Below, one piece after another: positions 2,398-23,553 of a stretch of DNA of 44,371 nt. Both the position numbers and the translations under genes were made by a program. The stretch lies in the sequence record OL362273.1; one strand, given 5' to 3'. The notes under the pieces are model-generated. The model ran no database searches. It saw only the letters and a list, made by a program, of their open reading frames with translations, and had not been told where the DNA came from. Each line of letters opens with the position of its first letter. Position 1 is the first letter of the stretch. This stretch comes from Escherichia phage 6949.

Positions 2398-2530
2398 AGA
2401 CCCAGATAATAAGAGAAATAATAGGTAATATAGGTTAACCTAGGTTATATAGGTATGCCTTAGTATGGGTGTACTCCTGTACACCCTATTCCTTACTTCC
2501 TTACTATATTTACATAATAGGAGAGAGACA

Positions 2531-2809
2531 ATGGCTAATGATTATAGTAGTCAACCATTAACAGGTAAGTCTAAGCGAAAGCAGGTACAACCTGTAAGTG
2601 AAGCACTAATGCTTCCGGTAATCTCAAAAGAGGAAGCTAGTAAGAAAATCAATGTTATTAATGATGCCACCAAATCAGGTAAACAGAAAGGGGCCATGGT
2701 GTGCCTTGAAGTGGAAGGTGGTGTATTGAAGATTGCTATCGCGGTTGATGGCAAAGAAGATTCAGAGTGGAAGTTAGTAACAGTGGAACCAACTGTTAAC
2801 CCAGTTTAA
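2531..2809 (+). CDS. Hypothetical protein, tandem paralog A (SGKQKGAMV motif)
   Basis: ATG 2531 follows RBS AGGAGAG. The protein shares the block SGKQKGAMVCLEVEGG..KIAIAV with the next gene. Confidence 0.55.
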   Translation: MANDYSSQPLTGKSKRKQVQPVSEALMLPVISKEEASKKINVINDATKSGKQKGAMVCLEVEGGVLKIAIAVDGKEDSEWKLVTVEPTVNPV

Positions 2810-2827
2810 GATAAGGAGGAAGATTAC

Positions 2828-3127
2828 ATGGCTAAATATGGTACTACAGGTTCTGTTACTGGTCAGGCTTTTCGAGTAAAAGCAGTACAAACTATTGCAA
2901 CGGCAATCCCGATGCCTGTTGTTAAAGAAGCAGACCTTAAGAGTAAAGATCACCCTATCAACATCAAACATTTATCAGGTAAACAGAAAGGTGCAATGGT
3001 TGCTCTTGAGAAAGGTGACATAACCTTACATATTGCTGTTGCACGTGGTAGTGAACCCACAGACCCTTGGGATGTAACTGGTATGGAAGAGGAAGCTGTT
3101 ACTCCAGCAGGGAATAATAATGCTTAA
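2828..3127 (+). CDS. Hypothetical protein, tandem paralog B (SGKQKGAMV motif)
   Basis: RBS AAGGAGGAAG precedes the ATG. It is a paralog of the preceding ORF (SGKQKGAMVALEKGDITLHIAVA). Confidence 0.6.
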   Translation: MAKYGTTGSVTGQAFRVKAVQTIATAIPMPVVKEADLKSKDHPINIKHLSGKQKGAMVALEKGDITLHIAVARGSEPTDPWDVTGMEEEAVTPAGNNNA

Positions 3128-3464
3128 TAAATACTTCAAGCGTAAAGAGTTTGCTTGCCGTTGTGGCTGCGGTACATCCACTGTTGATGCTGAATTACTA
3201 CAGGTAGTCACAGATGTGCGTGAGCACTTTGGTTCTCCTGTAGTTATCACTTCTGGGCACCGCTGTGCTAAGCACAATGCTAATGTAGGAGGAGCTAAGA
3301 ACTCCATGCATCTTACTGGTAAGGCTGCTGACATTAAGGTGTCTGGTGTTGGCCCAATGGAGGTGCGTGCATACCTCTGCAATAAATACCATGATAAGTA
3401 TGGTATTGGTGCTTATCCTACTTTTACCCATATCGACGTTAGAGATAACAAAGCAAGATGGTAA
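3120..3464 (+). CDS. Endolysin, peptidase M15-like zinc peptidoglycan peptidase
   Basis: The 114 aa translation carries SGHRC.KHN..VGG...S.H..G.A.D and FTHIDVRD motifs, which fit the H/D/H zinc-binding pattern of M15 family peptidases. It sits in the lysis region. Confidence 0.7.
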   Translation: MLNKYFKRKEFACRCGCGTSTVDAELLQVVTDVREHFGSPVVITSGHRCAKHNANVGGAKNSMHLTGKAADIKVSGVGPMEVRAYLCNKYHDKYGIGAYPTFTHIDVRDNKARW

Positions 3465-3572
3465 GATGCATTGAATGGTGTGAACGCATGGTTGCTAAGG
3501 CTTCAGAGGAAGGTAATTATGAAGATTGGCAGAACTACTCAACTTTATTAGCACAATGGAAAGGGAGGTGCA

Positions 3573-3722
3573 ATGAAAAAGCTGTTCAAATCTAAGAAGG
3601 TTGTAGGTGCACTAGTTGCATTGGCAATTGCTCTTGTTTCTGTAGGTCTTGGTGTAGACCTTGGCTCTGGCACGGAATCCTCTGTGACAGATGTGGTCTG
3701 CCAAGTGATCACCTGTGAATAA
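3573..3722 (+). CDS. Small membrane protein (49 aa), possible lysis accessory protein
   Basis: This ORF is below the track size cutoff. RBS GGGAGGTG precedes ATG 3573. The protein has a basic N-terminus (MKKLFKSKK), one hydrophobic helix, and a short C-terminal tail with two Cys. Confidence 0.4.
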   Translation: MKKLFKSKKVVGALVALAIALVSVGLGVDLGSGTESSVTDVVCQVITCE

Positions 3723-14619: not shown

Positions 14620-16608
14620 ATGGCTATTATTCAGAATGTACCGTGTCCTGCCTGTCAAAAGAACGGACATGATATTACTGGCAATCATTTAATGATCTTT
14701 GACGACGGGGCAGGATACTGTAACCGTGGTCACTTCCATGATAACGGTAAACCTTATTACCACAAGCCGGAAGGTGGCATCGAGATAACCGAGTTACCTA
14801 TTACTGGCAATATCAAATATACACCTTCTCAATTCAAAGAAATGGAGAAGGAAGGGAAGATAAGCGACCCTAAATTACGTGCCATCGCACTAGGTGGTAT
14901 GCGTATGAAAGACCGTTGGGAGGTCATGAATGAGCAAGAAAGGGCAGACCAAGAAGCAGAGTGGAAACTTGATGTTGAATGGTTCCTCACGCTTAAGCGT
15001 AAGAACCTTGTTTCCCGACACATTCGCGGCGACATTTGCGCATTGTATGATGTACGTGTCGGACACGATGAAGAGGGTAGAGTCTCGCGGCATTACTATC
15101 CACGCTTCGAGAAAGGTGAGCTAGTAGGAGCTAAGTGTCGTACCTTACCTAAAGATTTCAAGTTTGGACACTTAGGTAAACTCTTTGGTATGCAAGATCT
15201 TTTCGGTATGAATACTTTGTCTCACGTGTTAGACAAGGGAAGACGAAAGGATTGCTTGCTTATTGTGGGTGGGGAACTGGATGCACTAGCAGCGCAGCAG
15301 ATGCTCCTTGATTCTGCCAAGGGTACTAAGTGGGAAGGTCAACCTTACCATGTATGGTCTGTTAACAAAGGGGAGTCTTGCCTTGAAGAGATTGTGCAGA
15401 ACCGTGAACACATCGCCCAATTCAAGAAGATTATTTGGGGCTTCGATGGGGATGAGGTAGGGCAGAAGCAGAACCAGCAAGCGGCTCGCCTGTTCCCTGG
15501 CAAATCCTATATCCTTGAGTACCCTTCTGGTTGCAAAGATGCCAACAAGGCATTGATGGCTGGCAAGGCTAAAGAGTTTGTTGATGCATGGTTTAATGCC
15601 AAGTCATCTGATGAAGTCTTTGGTAGCCAGATTAAATCTATCGCATCTCAAAGGGATAAGCTCAAGGCTGCACGTCCAGAGCAAGGACTATCATGGCCTT
15701 GGCCTAAGCTGAACAAGGTAACGCTAGGTATTCGTAAGAATCAGCTTATCATTGTAGGTGCAGGGTCTGGTGTAGGTAAGACTGAGTTCCTTCGTGAAGT
15801 AGTTAAGCACCTCATTGAAGAACACGGTGAATCTGTAGGCATCATTTCTACAGAAGACCCGATGGTCAAGGTGTCCCGTGCTTTTATCGGCAAGTGGATT
15901 GATAAGCGTATTGAGTTACCGCCAACCAACGACCCGAAAGAAGACGGATACCGTGAGGTGTTCGATTACACCGAGGAAGAAGCTAACGCCGCCATTGATT
16001 ATGTAGCTGATACAGGTAAGCTGTTTGTAGTTGACCTAGAGGGTGACTATTCGATGGAAAAGGTAGAGCAAACTTGCCTAGAGTTTGAGGCTATGGGTAT
16101 TTCTAATATCATCATTGATAACTTAACGGGGATTAAATTAGATGAGCGTGCTTTTGGTGGGAAGGTTGGTGCACTTGATGAATGCGTCAAGCGGATTGGT
16201 ACTATCAAAGACCGACACCCGGTTACTATATTCCTTGTATCACACCTTACACGTCCTCCGGCAAACCGTACCCAACACGAAGAAGGTGGCGAAGTTATCC
16301 TTTCTGACTTCCGAGGCTCAGGCGCTATCGGATTCTGGGCATCTTACGCCTTGGGGATTGAGCGTAATACAAGAGCTGAAACGCTTGACGAAAGGACTAC
16401 CACGTACATCTCATGTGTCAAAGACCGCGACCAAGGTATCTGGACTGGAACCAAGGTCATGCTTAAGGGTGACATTCAAACCGGACGTTTAATGGAACCA
16501 CAAGCCCGTACTAAGTCATTTGACACCGGCGAAGCAAGGCAACAAGAAGTACCGGATTTACCGGACACTATAGAAGAGACTAACTTCGATGAAGAAAGTG
16601 AGTTCTGA
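14620..16608 (+). CDS. DNA primase/helicase (T7 gp4-like)
   Basis: The N-terminus has a zinc-binding motif (CPACQ...C.RGH), and the helicase domain has a Walker A motif (GAGSGVGKTEF). The C-terminus is acidic and ends in Phe (DEESEF), as in T7 gp4. Confidence 0.93.
   Translation: MAIIQNVPCPACQKNGHDITGNHLMIFDDGAGYCNRGHFHDNGKPYYHKPEGGIEITELPITGNIKYTPSQFKEMEKEGKISDPKLRAIALGGMRMKDRWEVMNEQERADQEAEWKLDVEWFLTLKRKNLVSRHIRGDICALYDVRVGHDEEGRVSRHYYPRFEKGELVGAKCRTLPKDFKFGHLGKLFGMQDLFGMNTLSHVLDKGRRKDCLLIVGGELDALAAQQMLLDSAKGTKWEGQPYHVWSVNKGESCLEEIVQNREHIAQFKKIIWGFDGDEVGQKQNQQAARLFPGKSYILEYPSGCKDANKALMAGKAKEFVDAWFNAKSSDEVFGSQIKSIASQRDKLKAARPEQGLSWPWPKLNKVTLGIRKNQLIIVGAGSGVGKTEFLREVVKHLIEEHGESVGIISTEDPMVKVSRAFIGKWIDKRIELPPTNDPKEDGYREVFDYTEEEANAAIDYVADTGKLFVVDLEGDYSMEKVEQTCLEFEAMGISNIIIDNLTGIKLDERAFGGKVGALDECVKRIGTIKDRHPVTIFLVSHLTRPPANRTQHEEGGEVILSDFRGSGAIGFWASYALGIERNTRAETLDERTTTYISCVKDRDQGIWTGTKVMLKGDIQTGRLMEPQARTKSFDTGEARQQEVPDLPDTIEETNFDEESEF
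16556..16578 (+). promoter_or_regulatory. SP6-type phage promoter inside the 3' end of the primase/helicase gene
   Basis: ATTTACCGGACACTATA followed by GAAGAG; the predicted +1 G is at 16573. Confidence 0.75.
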
Positions 16609-16684: not shown

Positions 16685-17368
16685 ATGTATAAATTAGTAT
16701 TGAATGTAGGTGATTATGTTCGTAACATCAATGTAACCTCACGTAGATATCGTTGCCGTGGTACTGTGACTAATGTAAGTGAAAACAGCTACTATGTAGA
16801 ATACAGTAATGGTATTAGACAGGCTTATCAAAAGGAATCAGCACATAACTACCTTGAGAAGATTGGAGAGGTAAGCAATCAATGTAAGTGCGTACACGAT
16901 GAGATTTGCGATAAGTGTGCCCGCCAGCTGCATAAAATGCTATTATACCCTCTTCGCTATGGTGCTGGTGTTCAAACATTAGCAGAGGCATATGGCAAAA
17001 GTAAGACCACACTCAAGAAAGAGCGCCGCAATGTAATCACTGGTAAGACTCAAAGTGAAATGATTAAACTATGTGGCACTGCATTAGGTGTTACGCAGTT
17101 TAATACTCGTTCATTGGGTAAATCCACAGGGCAAGCTATGGTGAAGATTGGCGAAGCCATGATGCATCCAAATGTACCTGTACGAATCATGGATGTTGAC
17201 CATGCAATCACAGAACACGGTACGCAACGACGTGTAATTAATAAGCATTTTGCCGACACTATAGAAGGTATTATTCGTAAGCAAGAGTTGAAGGGTCTTC
17301 ACATCTTAAATGGTGAAGAATTACTGTACCTACCTATCGTTACTGAAGAAACATACGTGAATATCTAA
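16685..17368 (+). CDS. Hypothetical protein with Cys cluster and a possible helix-turn-helix segment
   Basis: RBS GGAG precedes ATG 16685; the track start at 16679 is a TTG. The protein has a CKCVHDEICDKC cluster and the segment YGAGVQTLAEAYGKSKTTL. Confidence 0.6.
   Translation: MYKLVLNVGDYVRNINVTSRRYRCRGTVTNVSENSYYVEYSNGIRQAYQKESAHNYLEKIGEVSNQCKCVHDEICDKCARQLHKMLLYPLRYGAGVQTLAEAYGKSKTTLKKERRNVITGKTQSEMIKLCGTALGVTQFNTRSLGKSTGQAMVKIGEAMMHPNVPVRIMDVDHAITEHGTQRRVINKHFADTIEGIIRKQELKGLHILNGEELLYLPIVTEETYVNI
17247..17269 (+). promoter_or_regulatory. Candidate internal SP6-type promoter (degenerate upstream half)
   Basis: ATTTTGCCGACACTATA followed by GAAGGT. The core from -12 to +5 is intact, and there are three mismatches upstream. 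Confidence 0.4.
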
Positions 17369-17928: not shown

Positions 17929-18133
17929 AGTCAGTAAGGTTTGCTCTTGCGGTAAAGGTTATCGCAGTCGTATTGATGGTAAGTGTGGACATTGTAGGTC
18001 TAAGAAAGAGGCTGCTTTGTTTGACAAGTACCACAATGAATTAGCCTATAACTACCCACATCTAACACCTAATTCTTTATTAGGGCTTGGTTATAGAGCT
18101 AAATACTTTGGAGCAATCTATGAAATCAATTGA
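17915..18133 (+). CDS. Small Cys-rich (zinc-ribbon-like) protein
   Basis: ATG 17915 follows RBS GAGG and is in frame within track ORF 17888-18133. The protein has a CSCG...CGHC motif. Confidence 0.5.
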   Translation: MKTIKVSKVCSCGKGYRSRIDGKCGHCRSKKEAALFDKYHNELAYNYPHLTPNSLLGLGYRAKYFGAIYEIN

Positions 18134-20666
18134 TTGGAAGAAGGAGGCAGAAGGTCGTATCCTCGTGATGGATGCGGAAGCTAAAGGACTCCTTGACGCT
18201 ATCCGATATGGACACCGTGAAGATGTGCATATCATTTGCTGCATGGATTTGCTTACTACCGAGGAGTTTCTCTTCTTTGACCCGTATGAGATGCGCGACC
18301 CTGAGGCAAGGGAACGCCTGAAGGAGTGGGAAGGCCACCAAGACGGAACCTTGATTGATGGTGTTAACTTCCTGAAGCATTGTGAAGCTATTGTGTCACA
18401 GAACTTCCTAGGGTATGACGGACTTCTCTTTGAGAAAGCATTCCCTGATATTTGGAAAGGCTTTAACTATACCGAGAAGCGCGGTAAGGGCAGACTCCGT
18501 GCTGACCTGTGTCCGGTGCGAGTCATGGATACGCTGGTGATGAGTCGCCTGTTAAACCCCGATAGACGCCTTCCTCCGCAAGCATATGCCAAAGGTATGG
18601 GTAACGTCGCCCCTCACTCAATTGAGGCGCACGGCATCCGTATAGGTCGCTATAAACCGGAGAACGAGGACTGGTCTAAACTAACTGACCACATGGTTCA
18701 CCGTGTACGTGAGGACGTGGCGATTGGTCGTGACTTGTTCCTCTGGCTCTTTAACGGGGAATGGATGGAGCACAAACGCCGTGGCGTGAATAAACGCACG
18801 GGCCTAGGCATTGAGACAGCCTTCCACATGGAGTCCATTGTGGCGCTGGAGATGAGCCGTCAGGCCGAGCGTGGGTTCCGTCTGGACATCGACAAGGCTT
18901 TGGCCCGATGCGAAGAATTGGACGCTAAGATTGATGAGACAGTCGCAGCGTTCCGCCCTCACATGCCTATGCGTATCAAGTCTAAACCTTTTAAACCGGA
19001 AGAAAAGAATGAAGTATGCCAACGCGCAAATGAGTATGGAGCTAGCAACAATATACCTACTGTCCTTGACCCCTCACACTTTCTTCATGCCGAGAGACGA
19101 GGAGATCGCAAGACAGTATGGAGTGTCACTACTAAGTCTGGTGATTGGTCGGCTAGTGTCAAGAAAGACTTTCCTCACCTTAGAGGAAACCGTAATGACA
19201 CGCCAAGCATCAAGTGGATTGGCGCTTACTCGCCTGTTACTTTCGAAGAGATTCCCTTGGGTAACAGGGATACAGTTAAGCAAGTGCTCTATGATTATGG
19301 ATGGAAAGGTGTTGAATTTAACGATACCGAGCAAGCGCATCTCGATGAGCACGGAGTGTTACCCAAACCTTGGAGTGGTAAGATAAATGAAAAGTCCCTT
19401 ACTTTATGGCAAGAAAGAGCCGCACGTGAAGGTAAAACAGTCCCTGATTGGTGCTTGGGTATCGCTGCATGGTACATACTCGTATCCCGTCGTGGTCAGA
19501 TACTCAACCGTGGTGACGTTGAAGCCTTCAACGAGAAGGGAACGTGGCCCTCGCAGGCTGGTGTACGAAAGTGTCGCGGCCTTGTACCTGTAGCATTCAA
19601 CAAGGAGCTAGGAATCAATGCGCAGCAATACTACGAGAGGTACGGATGTTGGCCTACGTCTGACAAAGATGACGGAGAGTGGCGTGTTCCAGCTGTTGCT
19701 ATTAGCATTGGCACTTCTACGTTCCGTATGCGTCATCGTAACGTGGTCAATATTCCTGCCCGTGGCTTGTATCCTTTACGTGATTTATTCATAGCAGGGA
19801 AAGGCAAGCTAATCCTTGGTTGTGACGGTGCAGGTCTTGAACTGCGTGTCCTGTCTCACTTCATGAATGACCCTGAGTACCAAGAGATTGTACTGCACGG
19901 TGATATTCATACGCATAACCAGATGAAGGCTGGTCTTCCTAAGCGTGATATGGCGAAGACGTTTATATACGCCTTCCTCTATGGCTCTGGTATAGCCAAC
20001 CTTGCAGCAGTATGTGGTGTTACTGAGGAAGAAATGAAGGAAGTTGTGGCAAGATTCGAGATTGAACTGCCGTCTCTTGCACGTCTTCGTGAGAATGTTA
20101 TCGCACAAGGTAACAAGTTTGGCTACCTGCAAGCACCTGATGGGCATTGGGGTCGCATCCGCATGTCTGGTGGTGAACTTAAAGAGCACACGATGCTTAA
20201 CGTATTACTCCAGATGACTGGCTCTTTGTGTATGAAATATGCATTAGTCAAGGCATTTGCAGTAATGCGCAAGGAAGGTGTAGCTTTGGATGCTATGGGA
20301 AATCCTTGTGGTGTGGCTAACGTGCATGATGAAATCCAGATGGAAGTTCCTGAAGAGGAGGTCTTGTATCTTAACTACGACCTACCTTTCACCTTAGATG
20401 GGTTCGAAACAGAGAAGGCTGCTGTGAAAGCAGTTTTCGATGCAGAGGAGAAACGTGTTCATGTGGATTCTGAAGGACGTATGTGGTCTGCTGCAAACCT
20501 CGTTAGCGTTGATGCTGATGCTGGTGTGTTGCATTGCCAGCGCCGTTATCACCGTGCAGGTCATATCATTGCCGACGCCATGACTTGGGCAGGGCAGTAT
20601 CTGAAGATGCGTTGCCCGATGGCAGGAGAATATAAGATTGGCGCAAGCTGGAAGGAAACACACTGA
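18120..20666 (+). CDS. DNA polymerase, family A (T7 gp5-like) with 3'-5' exonuclease domain
   Basis: The N-terminus has the Exo I motif (VMDAEAKG). The polymerase motifs are GCDGAGLELRVLSHF, KTFIYAFLYGSG and VHDEIQ. ATG 18120 follows RBS GGAG; the track start at 18087 is a TTG. Confidence 0.93.
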   Translation: MKSIDWKKEAEGRILVMDAEAKGLLDAIRYGHREDVHIICCMDLLTTEEFLFFDPYEMRDPEARERLKEWEGHQDGTLIDGVNFLKHCEAIVSQNFLGYDGLLFEKAFPDIWKGFNYTEKRGKGRLRADLCPVRVMDTLVMSRLLNPDRRLPPQAYAKGMGNVAPHSIEAHGIRIGRYKPENEDWSKLTDHMVHRVREDVAIGRDLFLWLFNGEWMEHKRRGVNKRTGLGIETAFHMESIVALEMSRQAERGFRLDIDKALARCEELDAKIDETVAAFRPHMPMRIKSKPFKPEEKNEVCQRANEYGASNNIPTVLDPSHFLHAERRGDRKTVWSVTTKSGDWSASVKKDFPHLRGNRNDTPSIKWIGAYSPVTFEEIPLGNRDTVKQVLYDYGWKGVEFNDTEQAHLDEHGVLPKPWSGKINEKSLTLWQERAAREGKTVPDWCLGIAAWYILVSRRGQILNRGDVEAFNEKGTWPSQAGVRKCRGLVPVAFNKELGINAQQYYERYGCWPTSDKDDGEWRVPAVAISIGTSTFRMRHRNVVNIPARGLYPLRDLFIAGKGKLILGCDGAGLELRVLSHFMNDPEYQEIVLHGDIHTHNQMKAGLPKRDMAKTFIYAFLYGSGIANLAAVCGVTEEEMKEVVARFEIELPSLARLRENVIAQGNKFGYLQAPDGHWGRIRMSGGELKEHTMLNVLLQMTGSLCMKYALVKAFAVMRKEGVALDAMGNPCGVANVHDEIQMEVPEEEVLYLNYDLPFTLDGFETEKAAVKAVFDAEEKRVHVDSEGRMWSAANLVSVDADAGVLHCQRRYHRAGHIIADAMTWAGQYLKMRCPMAGEYKIGASWKETH

Positions 20667-20782
20667 TGGATAGGCTTGACATTATTTGCCTATTCTTCAC
20701 TCTCTTTCTTACACTCCTTATGCTTGCTTGTTATGGGAGTATGAGACTAGATATACCTGATGAAGAAGAGGGTTACGACTAA
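20666..20782 (+). CDS. Tiny hydrophobic peptide (38 aa)
   Basis: The ATG overlaps the polymerase stop (TGATG). The peptide has one transmembrane-like helix and ends ..GYD. It is below the track cutoff. Confidence 0.35.
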   Translation: MDRLDIICLFFTLFLTLLMLACYGSMRLDIPDEEEGYD

Positions 20783-20880
20783 TGCAAACTGCTTTTATTA
20801 TTCTTGGTATCATATTATTTATGGTAGTATTCTGGGCTTTCTCTGGCATTGACCCAGATTGTGATGGTAACTACGACTGA
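20782..20880 (+). CDS. Tiny hydrophobic peptide (32 aa)
   Basis: The ATG is coupled to the upstream stop through TAATG. The peptide has one transmembrane-like helix and ends ..NYD. It is below the track cutoff. Confidence 0.35.
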   Translation: MQTAFIILGIILFMVVFWAFSGIDPDCDGNYD

Positions 20881-20939
20881 GTTATACTCAAGGTCACTTA
20901 CGAGTGGCCTTTATGAATAACTTAACTGGAGGAAATATA

Positions 20940-21497
20940 ATGAATGAACTGAACACTAAGATGCTCAAGAAAGTTTATAATCTTGTATATAGTATCACGG
21001 GCCTACAATTCTACCCTGTAGGCGGTGCGGTTCGTGACACCCTGTACGGATTAACACCTAAAGACTATGATATGGTGTTGCCTGTAGGGTCTATGGCAGA
21101 TTCTCAGGCGCACGAAATCATGGAAAATATCTCTGAAGAGATGGCAATTATGGGATTTAGTACCAAACTCTACCAATCATACGGTATCAATTTAGGTTAT
21201 GAAATCAACCCTACCTCTTTTCAGGCTATGTTCCTTAGCTGCATGAAAGTGCAGATGCGTAATTGCCAACTTGATTTGCTTCTTTCTAAGGCTGAAACCA
21301 TCCAAGATCATGTACGTAAGCACGATTGCAATATGAATATGGTGTGGTTCGATGGTAAAGATATCAAGTGGGAGCACGGCGGTGTTACTCCTTTCGTTCC
21401 TGTGTTAGAGTTCAACCCTGACGGATGTGATCGTCGCATTGCTTACATGGACAAGAAGCGCCATGAACTTATCCGTCACAAATTAATGCATCTTTGA
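20940..21497 (+). CDS. Minimal nucleotidyltransferase, CCA-adding enzyme / poly(A) polymerase head-domain-like
   Basis: RBS GGAGGA lies 6 nt upstream of ATG 20940. The motif FYPVGGAVRDTLYGLTPKDYDMVL matches the class II tRNA nucleotidyltransferase signature GGxVRD...D.D. At 185 aa it has no room for the usual body and tail domains. Confidence 0.65.
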   Translation: MNELNTKMLKKVYNLVYSITGLQFYPVGGAVRDTLYGLTPKDYDMVLPVGSMADSQAHEIMENISEEMAIMGFSTKLYQSYGINLGYEINPTSFQAMFLSCMKVQMRNCQLDLLLSKAETIQDHVRKHDCNMNMVWFDGKDIKWEHGGVTPFVPVLEFNPDGCDRRIAYMDKKRHELIRHKLMHL

Positions 21498-21519
21498 TTT
21501 ACCGGACACTATAGAAGGA
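21497..21519 (+). promoter_or_regulatory. SP6-type phage promoter
   Basis: ATTTACCGGACACTATA followed by GAAGGA; the predicted +1 G is at 21514. Confidence 0.8.
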
Positions 21520-22038: not shown

Positions 22039-22845
22039 ATGGCACGTGGTGATTTTGATTTTGGTGCTCAGGTTACTAAAGCTGAAGGTAAGGTTTTTAA
22101 GAACCCTGAAGTTGGCGATCATGAAGCAGTAATCTCTGGCATCATTCATGTGGGTTCCTTCCAAGATATCTTTAAGAAAGGTAATACCACTGAAGCTAAG
22201 AAGCCAGCAAACTTTGTTCTTGTTAAGATTGTACTGATGGGTGACGATGACAAGAACGAAGATGATTCTCGCATGGAACAGTGGATGGCTGTGCCTCTGA
22301 AGTCTGGTGACAAGGCAACCTTGACTAAGTTCCTGAATGCAGTTGACCCTAAAGAGCTGCTTGGTGGTTTCGATGACTTCATCGGTGAATGCCTGACTGC
22401 AACTATGGTTGGCTCTGGCGACAAGAAGGATGATGGTACTTTCAAGTATGTTAACTGGAAAGGCTTTGGCGGTATGCCTGATAAGTTGAAGAAGCTTGTA
22501 CTGGCTCAGGTAGAAGAGGAAGGTCTGTCTATGACAGGTCATATCACCTTCGACAAGCTGACCAAAGAAATCCTTGATGACATTCCTGCTAACTTGGTGC
22601 GTCAATACTTCCTTAATGAAACACCTCGTGGTAAGAACCTGTCTGTTGCTGGTTCTCACGTAGAAGCAATCATTAAAGCTGCTCGTGAAGAAGACCCAGA
22701 GTGGAAGAAAGCCAAGAAGAAAGATGACGAGGATGCTACTCCAGCTAATCGTAAATCTCTGGATACTGGAGAGTCTGTTCCACAGGAAGTACCTGAAGCA
22801 GAAGATACTCCTGCACCGGAGATGGATGAGGACGCGGAATATTAA
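22039..22845 (+). CDS. Putative single-stranded DNA-binding protein (T7 gp2.5-like)
   Basis: A 268 aa protein with a strongly acidic C-terminal tail ending in an aromatic residue (..EMDEDAEY), which is the gp2.5 hallmark. It sits in the replication module. The assignment is by architecture only. Confidence 0.5.
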   Translation: MARGDFDFGAQVTKAEGKVFKNPEVGDHEAVISGIIHVGSFQDIFKKGNTTEAKKPANFVLVKIVLMGDDDKNEDDSRMEQWMAVPLKSGDKATLTKFLNAVDPKELLGGFDDFIGECLTATMVGSGDKKDDGTFKYVNWKGFGGMPDKLKKLVLAQVEEEGLSMTGHITFDKLTKEILDDIPANLVRQYFLNETPRGKNLSVAGSHVEAIIKAAREEDPEWKKAKKKDDEDATPANRKSLDTGESVPQEVPEAEDTPAPEMDEDAEY

Positions 22846-23178: not shown

Positions 23179-23553
23179 ATGTTCAAGATTGAAACTATCG
23201 TAAACCGTGTTGTTAAAGGTGCTGCTCTGGTATCCGTTGAGTCTTTCATTATCGTCGATGAAGCTGATCAACTGGTAGCTGGTACTAAGGCTTATGATAC
23301 TCGTGAAGAAGCTCAGGCTAAGATTGACAGCATGGGTAACTTCGCTGCGGGTCTGGAGTTCGCTCGTGCTTGCTTCCCTGAGCAGGCTGACAAAGCTCAG
23401 ATTGGTAAGGCTAATATCGTAGCTGAATATCTGGATTGGATTGCTGCTGGTAAGCCGGTGAAAGAAGTTAAAGCTGCGGAAGAAGTTGAAGCTCCGGCAG
23501 TAGAAGAAGTAGCTGCACCGGAAGTTCCGGTAAGCGAAGAAGAAGAGTTTTAA
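23179..23553 (+). CDS. Acidic hypothetical protein (124 aa) in a stand-alone promoter-gene-terminator unit
   Basis: RBS AAGGAG precedes the ATG. The C-terminal tail is acidic and ends SEEEEF. A terminator follows directly. Confidence 0.6.
   Translation: MFKIETIVNRVVKGAALVSVESFIIVDEADQLVAGTKAYDTREEAQAKIDSMGNFAAGLEFARACFPEQADKAQIGKANIVAEYLDWIAAGKPVKEVKAAEEVEAPAVEEVAAPEVPVSEEEEF

Follow-up and report, generated by a model that had tools for sequence, protein, structure and literature searches.

What are the two very short open reading frames (ORFs) that lie end to end directly behind the DNA polymerase gene of Escherichia phage 6949 (sequence record OL362273.1), and what might their products do for the phage? 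We addressed this question in the whole 44,371-nucleotide stretch of that record (here, the window), in which the two frames are designated ORF1 (38 amino acids) and ORF2 (32 amino acids). They are real protein-coding micro-genes. For their products, we favor, with a probability of about 0.5, two independent inner-membrane micro-proteins in an N-in/C-out orientation, each with a periplasm-facing acidic tail that acts on the host envelope. The locus consists of the following elements.

18120-20666, plus strand: DNA polymerase gene, orthologue of K1E gene 13 (from the ORF list; the K1E and phage 6948 records both give DNA polymerase).
20650-20656, plus strand: Shine-Dalgarno (SD)-like site GGAAGGA (core AAGGA, 20652-20656) in the final polymerase codons, 9 nucleotides 5' of the ORF1 ATG.
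20666-20782, plus strand: ORF1, 38 amino acids, MDRLDIICLFFTLFLTLLMLACYGSMRLDIPDEEEGYD, orthologue of gp13.5 of K1E and K1-5, phrog_15860.
20766-20772, plus strand: SD-like site AAGAGGG (core GAGG, 20768-20771) in the EEEG codons of ORF1, 10 nucleotides 5' of the ORF2 ATG.
20782-20880, plus strand: ORF2, 32 amino acids, MQTAFIILGIILFMVVFWAFSGIDPDCDGNYD, orthologue of gp14 of K1E and K1-5 and of SP6 gene 14/gp15, phrog_4539.

Between positions 20640 and 20890, the strand reads ...GGAAGGAAACACAC TGATG GAT...GGTTACGAC TAATG CAA...AACTACGAC TGA GTTATACTC. The polymerase ORF (848 to 859 codons) ends with a TGA (20664-20666) that overlaps the ATG of ORF1 (20666-20668), the TAA of ORF1 (20780-20782) overlaps the ATG of ORF2 (20782-20784), and ORF2 stops with a TGA at 20878-20880. 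Direct reading of the strand therefore confirms the tandem ORFs of 38 and 32 codons that a first-pass annotation had described as overlapping the upstream stops (i.e., TGATG and TAATG), with the same coordinates and lengths. The same annotation assigned to each product a single hydrophobic helix and an acidic end in (G/N)YD, and the hydropathy, the AlphaFold2 models, and the translations agree with it. The maximum Kyte-Doolittle hydropathy over 17 residues is 2.79 for ORF1 and 2.91 for ORF2, and AlphaFold2 predicts one helix each (residues 3 to 28 and 2 to 20, respectively) followed by a low-confidence coil tail. ORF1 starts with MDRLD and passes from the helix (approximately residues 3 to 28) through an invariant ACYGS junction to an invariant acidic tail, DEEEGYD. 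ORF2 consists of a helix (residues 2 to 20) without any basic residue and the invariant tail D24-P-D-x-D-G-N-Y-D32. Except for a 49-amino-acid ORF at 3573-3722, these are the only ATG-started hydrophobic ORFs of 25 to 70 amino acids on the plus strand outside larger genes.

The coding status of the two ORFs was assessed by pooled pairwise ratios of nonsynonymous to synonymous polymorphism (pN/pS) among 13 distinct nucleotide versions of each ORF, taken from GenBank phages and IMG/VR contigs. In frame, the ratios were 0.22 (ORF1) and 0.24 (ORF2), and stop codons were absent from all intact copies, while the two other frames of the same alignments gave ratios of 0.87 to 1.33 and 17 to 45 stop codons. 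The final 150 polymerase codons of the same genomes gave 0.087. Within the ORFs, the tails were under the strongest constraint, with ratios of 0.16 (ORF1, residues 25 to 38) and 0.10 (ORF2, residues 23 to 32). The invariant columns are A21, C22, Y23, G24, S25, and D32 to D38 in ORF1, and W18, F20, S21, G22, D24, P25, D26, D28, G29, N30, Y31, and D32 in ORF2; in the helix cores, I, V, L, and F are freely exchanged. Phages that carry ORF1 only keep the tail PDEEEGYD with synonymous changes, although the tail codons overlap the SD-like site of ORF2. Since the tail is kept in this manner where ORF2 is missing, it is conserved at the protein level. The first-pass annotation had named conservation of the reading frames in related phages as a check, and both frames are indeed kept under purifying selection that is frame specific.

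The region is 99.4% identical to that of Escherichia phage 6948 and 91 to 98% identical to many Vectrevirus genomes; by this measure, the window is a Vectrevirus genome (SP6-like Autographiviridae, Molineuxvirinae). ORF1 matched phrog_15860 (E, 9.8e-28; residues 1 to 38 on profile positions 1 to 38 of 38), and ORF2 matched phrog_4539 (E, 2.9e-17; residues 1 to 28 on profile positions 4 to 32 of 32). In tblastn searches, ORF1 was found at 71 to 100% identity in 67 phage records (Escherichia, Citrobacter, Raoultella, and Klebsiella phages) and ORF2 at 75 to 100% identity in 68 phage records, including SP6 and other SP6-like phages of Salmonella. K1E and K1-5 label the ORFs gp13.5 and gp14 (in K1E, behind gene 13), the phage 6948 record gives two hypothetical proteins, and the ORF2 orthologue is labeled gene 14/gp15 in SP6 and orf21 in UAB_Phi78. 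Judged by sequence, both genes are already known, as the annotated gp13.5 and gp14 (SP6 gp15). ORF1 resembles gp13.5 of K1E and K1-5 over its full length of 38 amino acids and in the TGATG overlap behind the polymerase gene (79 to 100% identity across Vectrevirus), with no substantive difference between them, and its position is that seen in K1E and phage 6948. ORF2 resembles gp14 of K1E and K1-5 in its length of 32 amino acids and as the final cistron ahead of a hairpin, where it stands behind either gp13.5 or the polymerase gene; SP6-type Salmonella phages have the gp14 family member directly behind the polymerase gene, without gp13.5, and SP6 itself has Y in place of C27.

Both PHROG families are of unknown function, their annotations read "hypothetical," and the literature that we searched contained no mention of gp13.5. 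The genome paper of UAB_Phi78 gives the ORF2 orthologue as "Unknown" (PMC4837284). The first-pass annotation had also claimed that automated ORF calling misses the two ORFs. This holds for some records (i.e., the GenBank records of CrRp3, ULINTec6, and vB_EcoP_D annotate one or none) but not in general, given that many relatives annotate both and that PHROG families exist. ORF1 and ORF2 should be called as genes here; one or both are missing from a number of public Vectrevirus records.

The distribution of the two genes bears directly on their role. A related polymerase C-terminus was present in 215 phage records (at an identity of at least 90% in 88 of them), and 80 phage records had at least one of the ORFs, including 55 with both. 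All four states occur among phages with near-identical polymerases, i.e., both ORFs (K1E, K1-5, 6948, LL11, and others), ORF1 only (CrRp3, R4596, Raoultella P3a, KMB14, LF31P3, and NTNC80A), ORF2 only (SP6, UAB_Phi78, Kenya-K30, GRNsp51, mutPK1A2, and L009), and neither (L008, L010 to L012, L014, and L025), and the ORFs are missing even from phages whose polymerase is at least 95% identical. ORF1 of R4596 and Raoultella P3a has a GTG start overlapping a TAG. Decayed copies also occur: ORF1 carries a frameshift in ULINTec6 (L046) and a premature stop (DEE*, four codons early) in Mt1B1_P10 (L050), P0007 has a 61-amino-acid frameshift fusion, and the ORF2 of L005 starts with GTG and contains multiple frameshifts. 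L005 is metagenome derived, and its decay may be an assembly error. Short repeats (ACACAC-TRA[TG], TACGAC-TRA[TG], and TACGAC-TGA-GTTAT) border the modules, so that whole modules are present or absent precisely, and the final stop always abuts the same hairpin. A GGAA/GACACAC-TRATG context stands before whichever ORF is first in the relatives.

The slot just 3' of the polymerase gene is a hot spot for accessory genes: what relatives have there is an HNH or homing endonuclease, a nucleotidyltransferase, unrelated ORFs of 73 to 86 amino acids, or nothing. HNH-type ORFs lie directly behind the polymerase gene in L017 and L023. In NTNC80A (L044, OP018999.1), a homing endonuclease gene (286-817) separates the polymerase gene from gp13.5, whose N-terminus is replaced (MSTSD...), has no basic residue there, and overlaps the end of the endonuclease gene. 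With a slot this variable, there is less reason to read a function into the position next to the polymerase gene. The claim of translational coupling made in the first-pass annotation is thus upheld as far as the arrangement goes, with the stop/start overlap and an SD-like site inside the upstream cistron, but in view of the independent presence and absence of the ORFs and the hypervariable slot, this link to the polymerase is probably incidental. Each ORF is independently dispensable, accessory, and confined to SP6-like phages of Enterobacteriaceae.

A separate observation concerns uncultured SP6-like contigs whose polymerase C-terminus is 53% identical (L029 to L034). These contigs carry twin unrelated hydrophobic ORFs of 30 and 32 amino acids at approximately 3073-3270 (e.g., MTLYGITGGLLLGLLNLALIWTIGSCIFKE and MSIWFYVQATVLISVTLFIWGFILFASFKDSN), each with its own SD site and without an acidic tail, upstream of a ThyX-like gene; the C-termini of both are altered in L031 to L033. 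The twin ORFs suggest that micro-membrane peptides have been acquired repeatedly behind the polymerase gene.

How the products would work is more conditional. We propose that they insert post-translationally as a single inner-membrane helix, since chains of 32 to 38 residues are off the ribosome before co-translational targeting and insertion must therefore be post-translational. Two established principles bear on the orientation: the positive-inside rule, and the translocation, reportedly shown by Kiefer and Kuhn to be driven by the membrane potential, of the tail of small Sec-independent proteins in which this tail is short and acidic (e.g., the Pf3 coat protein). In ORF1, R/K3 is the only conserved basic residue (kept in 15 of 16 variants), and position 27 varies among R, Q, and H, with Q or H in 6 of the 16. 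In 10 of 10 ORF2 variants, basic residues are absent and the acidic residues number four, all Asp. On the basis of this charge pattern, the positive-inside rule, and potential-assisted translocation of the acidic tail, an N-in/C-out orientation with the tail at the periplasmic face is predicted. The functional end would be the acidic tail of 10 to 14 residues together with the interface residues (ACYGS in ORF1 and W-x-F-S-G in ORF2), and the helix would be an anchor; we take the tail to be the effector because selection is concentrated on the interface and the tail while hydrophobic residues are exchanged in the helix. The probable binding partner of the tail is a divalent cation, a component of the host envelope that faces the periplasm, or both. 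Since both ORFs are frequently lost, the role would be accessory and directed at the host or at competitors during infection (i.e., envelope remodeling, competitor exclusion, or progeny protection) and not at DNA replication, and since each ORF occurs alone in viable phages, the peptides would not be an obligate pair but would act independently. Superinfection exclusion or action on host membrane proteins, which the first-pass annotation had raised, is plausible for accessory membrane peptides such as those predicted here; our model is in line with that suggestion in outline but does not speak for exclusion specifically.

Several points weigh against this model. The predicted topology derives from charge rules only, and a cytoplasmic tail is possible. 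The literature search gave no expression, localization, or phenotype data for any family member, and no homologue of known function was found in Pfam, NCBIfam, PDB, two large protein collections, or E. coli genomes. Furthermore, frequent loss and decay imply that any benefit is conditional, and it could be small.

A more specific form of the model was considered for the ORF2 tail. At E values up to 10, ORF2 matched no PDB sequences other than lanmodulin (6mi5) and 8fns, a related EF-hand protein. Residues 19 to 32 of ORF2 (AFSGIDPDCDGNYD) align to all four EF loops (e.g., AFDKLDPDKDGTLD), the loop pattern being DPD(K/N)DGT(I/L)D. Residues 24 to 32 (DPDCDGNYD) fit lanmodulin loop positions 1 to 9, including the unusual Pro2 and Asp9 (PMC9362731), and the preceding A-F-x-x-(I/L) also aligns. 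The D-x-D-x-D-G motif, with ligand positions 1, 3, 5, and 9 and a hydrophobic position 8, is present in 10 of 10 ORF2 variants and absent from the ORF1 tail, and the sole variable residue of the ORF2 tail, C27 (Y in SP6), falls on a non-ligand "x" position of the EF motif. ORF2 might accordingly be imagined as a membrane-anchored "half EF-hand," in which the transmembrane helix serves as the entering helix and DPDxDGNYD as a lanmodulin-like loop cut at position 9. Because one EF loop works together with another, a complete metal site would form only when two tails pair, whether both belong to ORF2 or one is the degenerate xPDxExGYD tail of ORF1. The resulting dimer would depend on cations, lie at the periplasmic face, and act on the host envelope. 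If true, no smaller membrane-tethered EF-type metal site would be known, and the phage would have an effector of a new kind. However, the loop match is not significant (E, 0.8 to 1.1), no Pfam EF-hand family matched at E values up to 1, and shuffled tails of ORF2 composition yield D.D.DG 2.3% of the time. ORF2 also ends at loop position 9, without the position 12 Glu and the exiting helix, and AlphaFold gives coil after residue 20. Lanmodulin is described as periplasmic (PMC9260416), and isolated 12-residue lanmodulin Pro2 loops had no measurable Ca(II) affinity (PMC9362731). We regard the half EF-hand as unlikely.

The transcriptional setting of the two genes was examined with a pattern search for SP6-type promoters, which gave 13 matches compared with 1.4 expected. 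The following elements lie downstream of ORF2.

20878-20924, plus strand: imperfect hairpin starting from the ORF2 stop codon (outer stem 20878-20885/20917-20924; inner stem 20890-20898/20903-20911).
21505-21517, plus strand: SP6-type phage promoter core GACACTATAGAAG (pattern search).

Upstream of the polymerase gene, SP6-type promoter cores were found at 16564 and 17255-17267, and the pattern search found no phage promoter between 17255 and 21505. The promoters at 17255-17267 and 21505-21517 bracket the polymerase gene, ORF1, ORF2, the hairpin, and a nucleotidyltransferase-like gene, and their positions imply that the polymerase gene, ORF1, and ORF2 form one co-transcribed, middle-class transcription unit. 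ORF1 and ORF2 are the end cistrons of this middle (DNA-metabolism) unit, directly 3' of the polymerase gene. The hairpin folds with a free energy of -18 kcal/mol (z, -3.5), and relatives with both, one, or none of the ORFs all have its sequence, GTTATACTCAAGGTCACTTACGAGTGGCC, directly behind their final stop codon. A rho-independent terminator was considered for it and rejected, because the hairpin has no U-tract and was not called by the terminator scan; it is probably an RNA processing or stabilizing element that ends the polymerase transcription unit. Salmonella Zindervirus relatives have a different sequence at the hairpin site, which runs into an SP6 promoter.

Other features of the surroundings were also noted. 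The nucleotidyltransferase-like gene (20940-21497) lies between the hairpin and the next promoter, matches phrog_1614 (E, 3e-39), and has weak matches to tRNA nucleotidyltransferase PHROGs; it is missing from K1E and K1-5 and lies directly 3' of the polymerase gene in L011, L012, L014, L018, L019, and L027, which have no micro-ORFs. Relative to the usual SP6/K1E order, the map of the window is circularly permuted, with the late-region and lysis-type genes (approximately 2465-3722) first and the polymerase gene at 18 to 20.7 kb instead of approximately 11 to 13.6 kb, and the phage 6948 record has the same arrangement. The K1E record annotates gp13.1 and gp13.2 within the polymerase gene in other frames (L001, 1010-1594); the matching alternative-frame ORFs of the window, at 18934-19386 (150 amino acids) and 19387-19593 (68 amino acids), are probably spurious.

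The position of ORF1 and ORF2 next to the polymerase gene, arranged for translational coupling, would also suit a role in replication. In an N-out/C-in orientation, the cytoplasmic tail could mimic the acidic, aromatic-ended C-termini of phage replication proteins and tether or titrate the polymerase, or another tail-binding protein, at the membrane, with an outcome similar to that of phi29 p1 and p16.7, which are membrane organizers of replication. T7 gp4 and gp2.5 bind T7 DNA polymerase via acidic tails ending in Phe, and in the window the helicase-primase (14620-16608) ends in ...FDEESEF, a 268-amino-acid protein (22039-22845) in ...DEDAEY, and a 124-amino-acid protein (23179-23553) in ...SEEEEF; R27 often lies just after the ORF1 helix. 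In both micro-protein tails, however, the aromatic residue is penultimate and Asp is last, in contrast to the final aromatic of the T7 gp2.5/gp4 type. R27 is replaced in the 6 Q/H variants, ORF2 has no basic residue to keep its tail inside, the ORF1 of NTNC80A is coupled to a homing endonuclease gene rather than to the polymerase gene, and the ORFs come and go in the hypervariable slot beside polymerases at least 95% identical, all of which makes a replication tether improbable. The invariant A21-C22 of ORF1, followed by a G/S-rich stretch, could point to a different fate, in which ORF1 would be a lipoprotein precursor cut by signal peptidase II before C22 and a 17-residue acidic lipopeptide, C-YGSMRLDIPDEEEGYD, would reach the outer membrane and mask a receptor or envelope protein in the manner of T5 Llp or Cor. 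Small phage lipoproteins that block receptors (e.g., T5 Llp) are an established exclusion mechanism, and 15 of 16 variants pass a permissive PROSITE-type rule (K or R among residues 1 to 7, a Cys within residues 15 to 35, and [AGS]-C after a hydrophobic/uncharged stretch). But 12% of shuffled hydrophobic cores pass that rule too, the strict lipobox [LVI][ASTVI][GAS]C occurs in 0 of 16 ORF1 variants (which have M-L/I-A-C instead), the n-region MDRLD is net negative and that of NTNC80A has no basic residue, the AlphaFold helix continues through the putative cleavage site, and ORF2 has no lipobox. We therefore give the lipoprotein explanation little credence.

It is also conceivable that the helix acts and not the tail, i.e., that the products are small peptides that perturb the membrane in the manner of type I toxins or pinholins and lower the membrane potential in mid-infection, with host shutdown, a block to incoming DNA, or lysis timing as the result. 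The helices of 17 to 25 residues are very hydrophobic, the promoter layout indicates expression with the middle genes, the distribution is accessory, and the tail-less twin ORFs in the same slot of L029 to L034 suggest that hydrophobic micro-peptides as such are favored. Selection, however, peaks on the tails and the interface while hydrophobic residues are swapped freely in the helix cores; the lysis-type genes (approximately 2465-3722) lie approximately 17 kb away, there is no holin PHROG match, and early depolarization would harm a phage that needs an energized cell. Holins, moreover, typically have basic and not acidic C-terminal tails. We consider the chance that the helix is the active part to be slim. 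Phages that are otherwise intact have often lost an ORF completely or carry it with a frameshift or a premature stop, which raises the further question of whether the products have any function at all; the ORFs might be hitchhiking filler, or might act at the level of RNA or translation (e.g., as a spacer between the polymerase stop and the hairpin). The repeat borders (ACACAC-TRA/TACGAC-TRA) allow precise module loss, and the hairpin sits at the same place behind the final stop codon whether the ORFs are present or not. Against this stand the amino-acid-level purifying selection on the annotated frames only (0.22 to 0.24 compared with approximately 1), the synonymous variation within invariant tail residues, the retention of ORF2 from Escherichia to Salmonella phages at 75 to 90% identity, and the conservation of start codons, SD-like sites, and lengths, so that the absence of a product function is very improbable.

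Searches for remote homologues returned little beyond the two families themselves. A concatenated ORF1 and ORF2 query against a collection of 5.8 billion proteins gave just 7 clusters, all of ORF1 and all from phage contigs of approximately 44 kb, and a phmmer search with ORF2 against 1.84 billion cluster representatives gave a single 50%-identity cluster. E. coli genomes contained no chromosomal match to either ORF, Pfam (at E values up to 1) and NCBIfam contained no family for ORF1 or ORF2, and PDB sequences contained no match to ORF1. A match of ORF2 to phrog_1625 ("bacteriocin production or immunity"; E, 0.38) covered the helix only and was taken as hydrophobic-helix noise. Common ancestry of ORF1 and ORF2, considered on account of their ...PD....YD ends, was not established (hhalign probability, 1%; E, 0.054 over 9 columns): the ORF1 tail, IPDEEEGYD, and the ORF2 tail share only P, D, one acidic residue, Y, and D, and the shared 9-nucleotide end TACGACTRA could equally be a recombination junction. 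A -1 frameshift producing a polymerase-ORF1 fusion (i.e., a membrane-anchored polymerase) was rejected, as the ORF1 frame is not open upstream of 20636 and a slippery X XXY YYZ heptamer is lacking in the final ten codons of the polymerase gene. A cleavable Sec signal peptide that frees an acidic peptide was likewise rejected, given the lack of a basic n-region and the F/Y at -3 of the sole candidate sites (FSG|I and YGS|M).

With gp13.5 and gp14, the growing list of conserved phage micro-proteins lacking an assigned role gains two members. To their previous annotation, our analysis adds the tail-focused purifying selection, the independent loss in a hypervariable slot, the restriction to a single clade, and the likeness of ORF2 to a truncated EF-type loop. 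Their conserved acidic tail of 9 to 14 residues, natural knockouts, independent genes, and EF-loop-like motif make them a convenient small system for the study of single-helix phage peptides at the cell envelope, and K1E, K1-5, and SP6 are tractable phages that are used in phage therapy work.

In comparison with known systems, ORF1 and ORF2 share with T4 Imm and Sp, T5 Llp, Cor, and P22 SieA an accessory nature, production before lysis, and an envelope location, the last two being predicted for ORF1 and ORF2. SieA is an inner-membrane exclusion protein (PMC10883804). These proteins are larger (approximately 60 to 160 amino acids and more), and ORF1 and ORF2 have no PHROG, Pfam, or NCBIfam similarity to their families. 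Small single-pass regulators such as MgrB, AcrZ, and MgtS, together with LysM of the single-stranded RNA phage M, have no sequence relationship to ORF1 or ORF2 either, but they provide the model that we favor for how the two products may work: proteins of this type comprise approximately 30 to 50 amino acids, have one helix, and dock onto a larger membrane protein through a short, conserved stretch outside the membrane.

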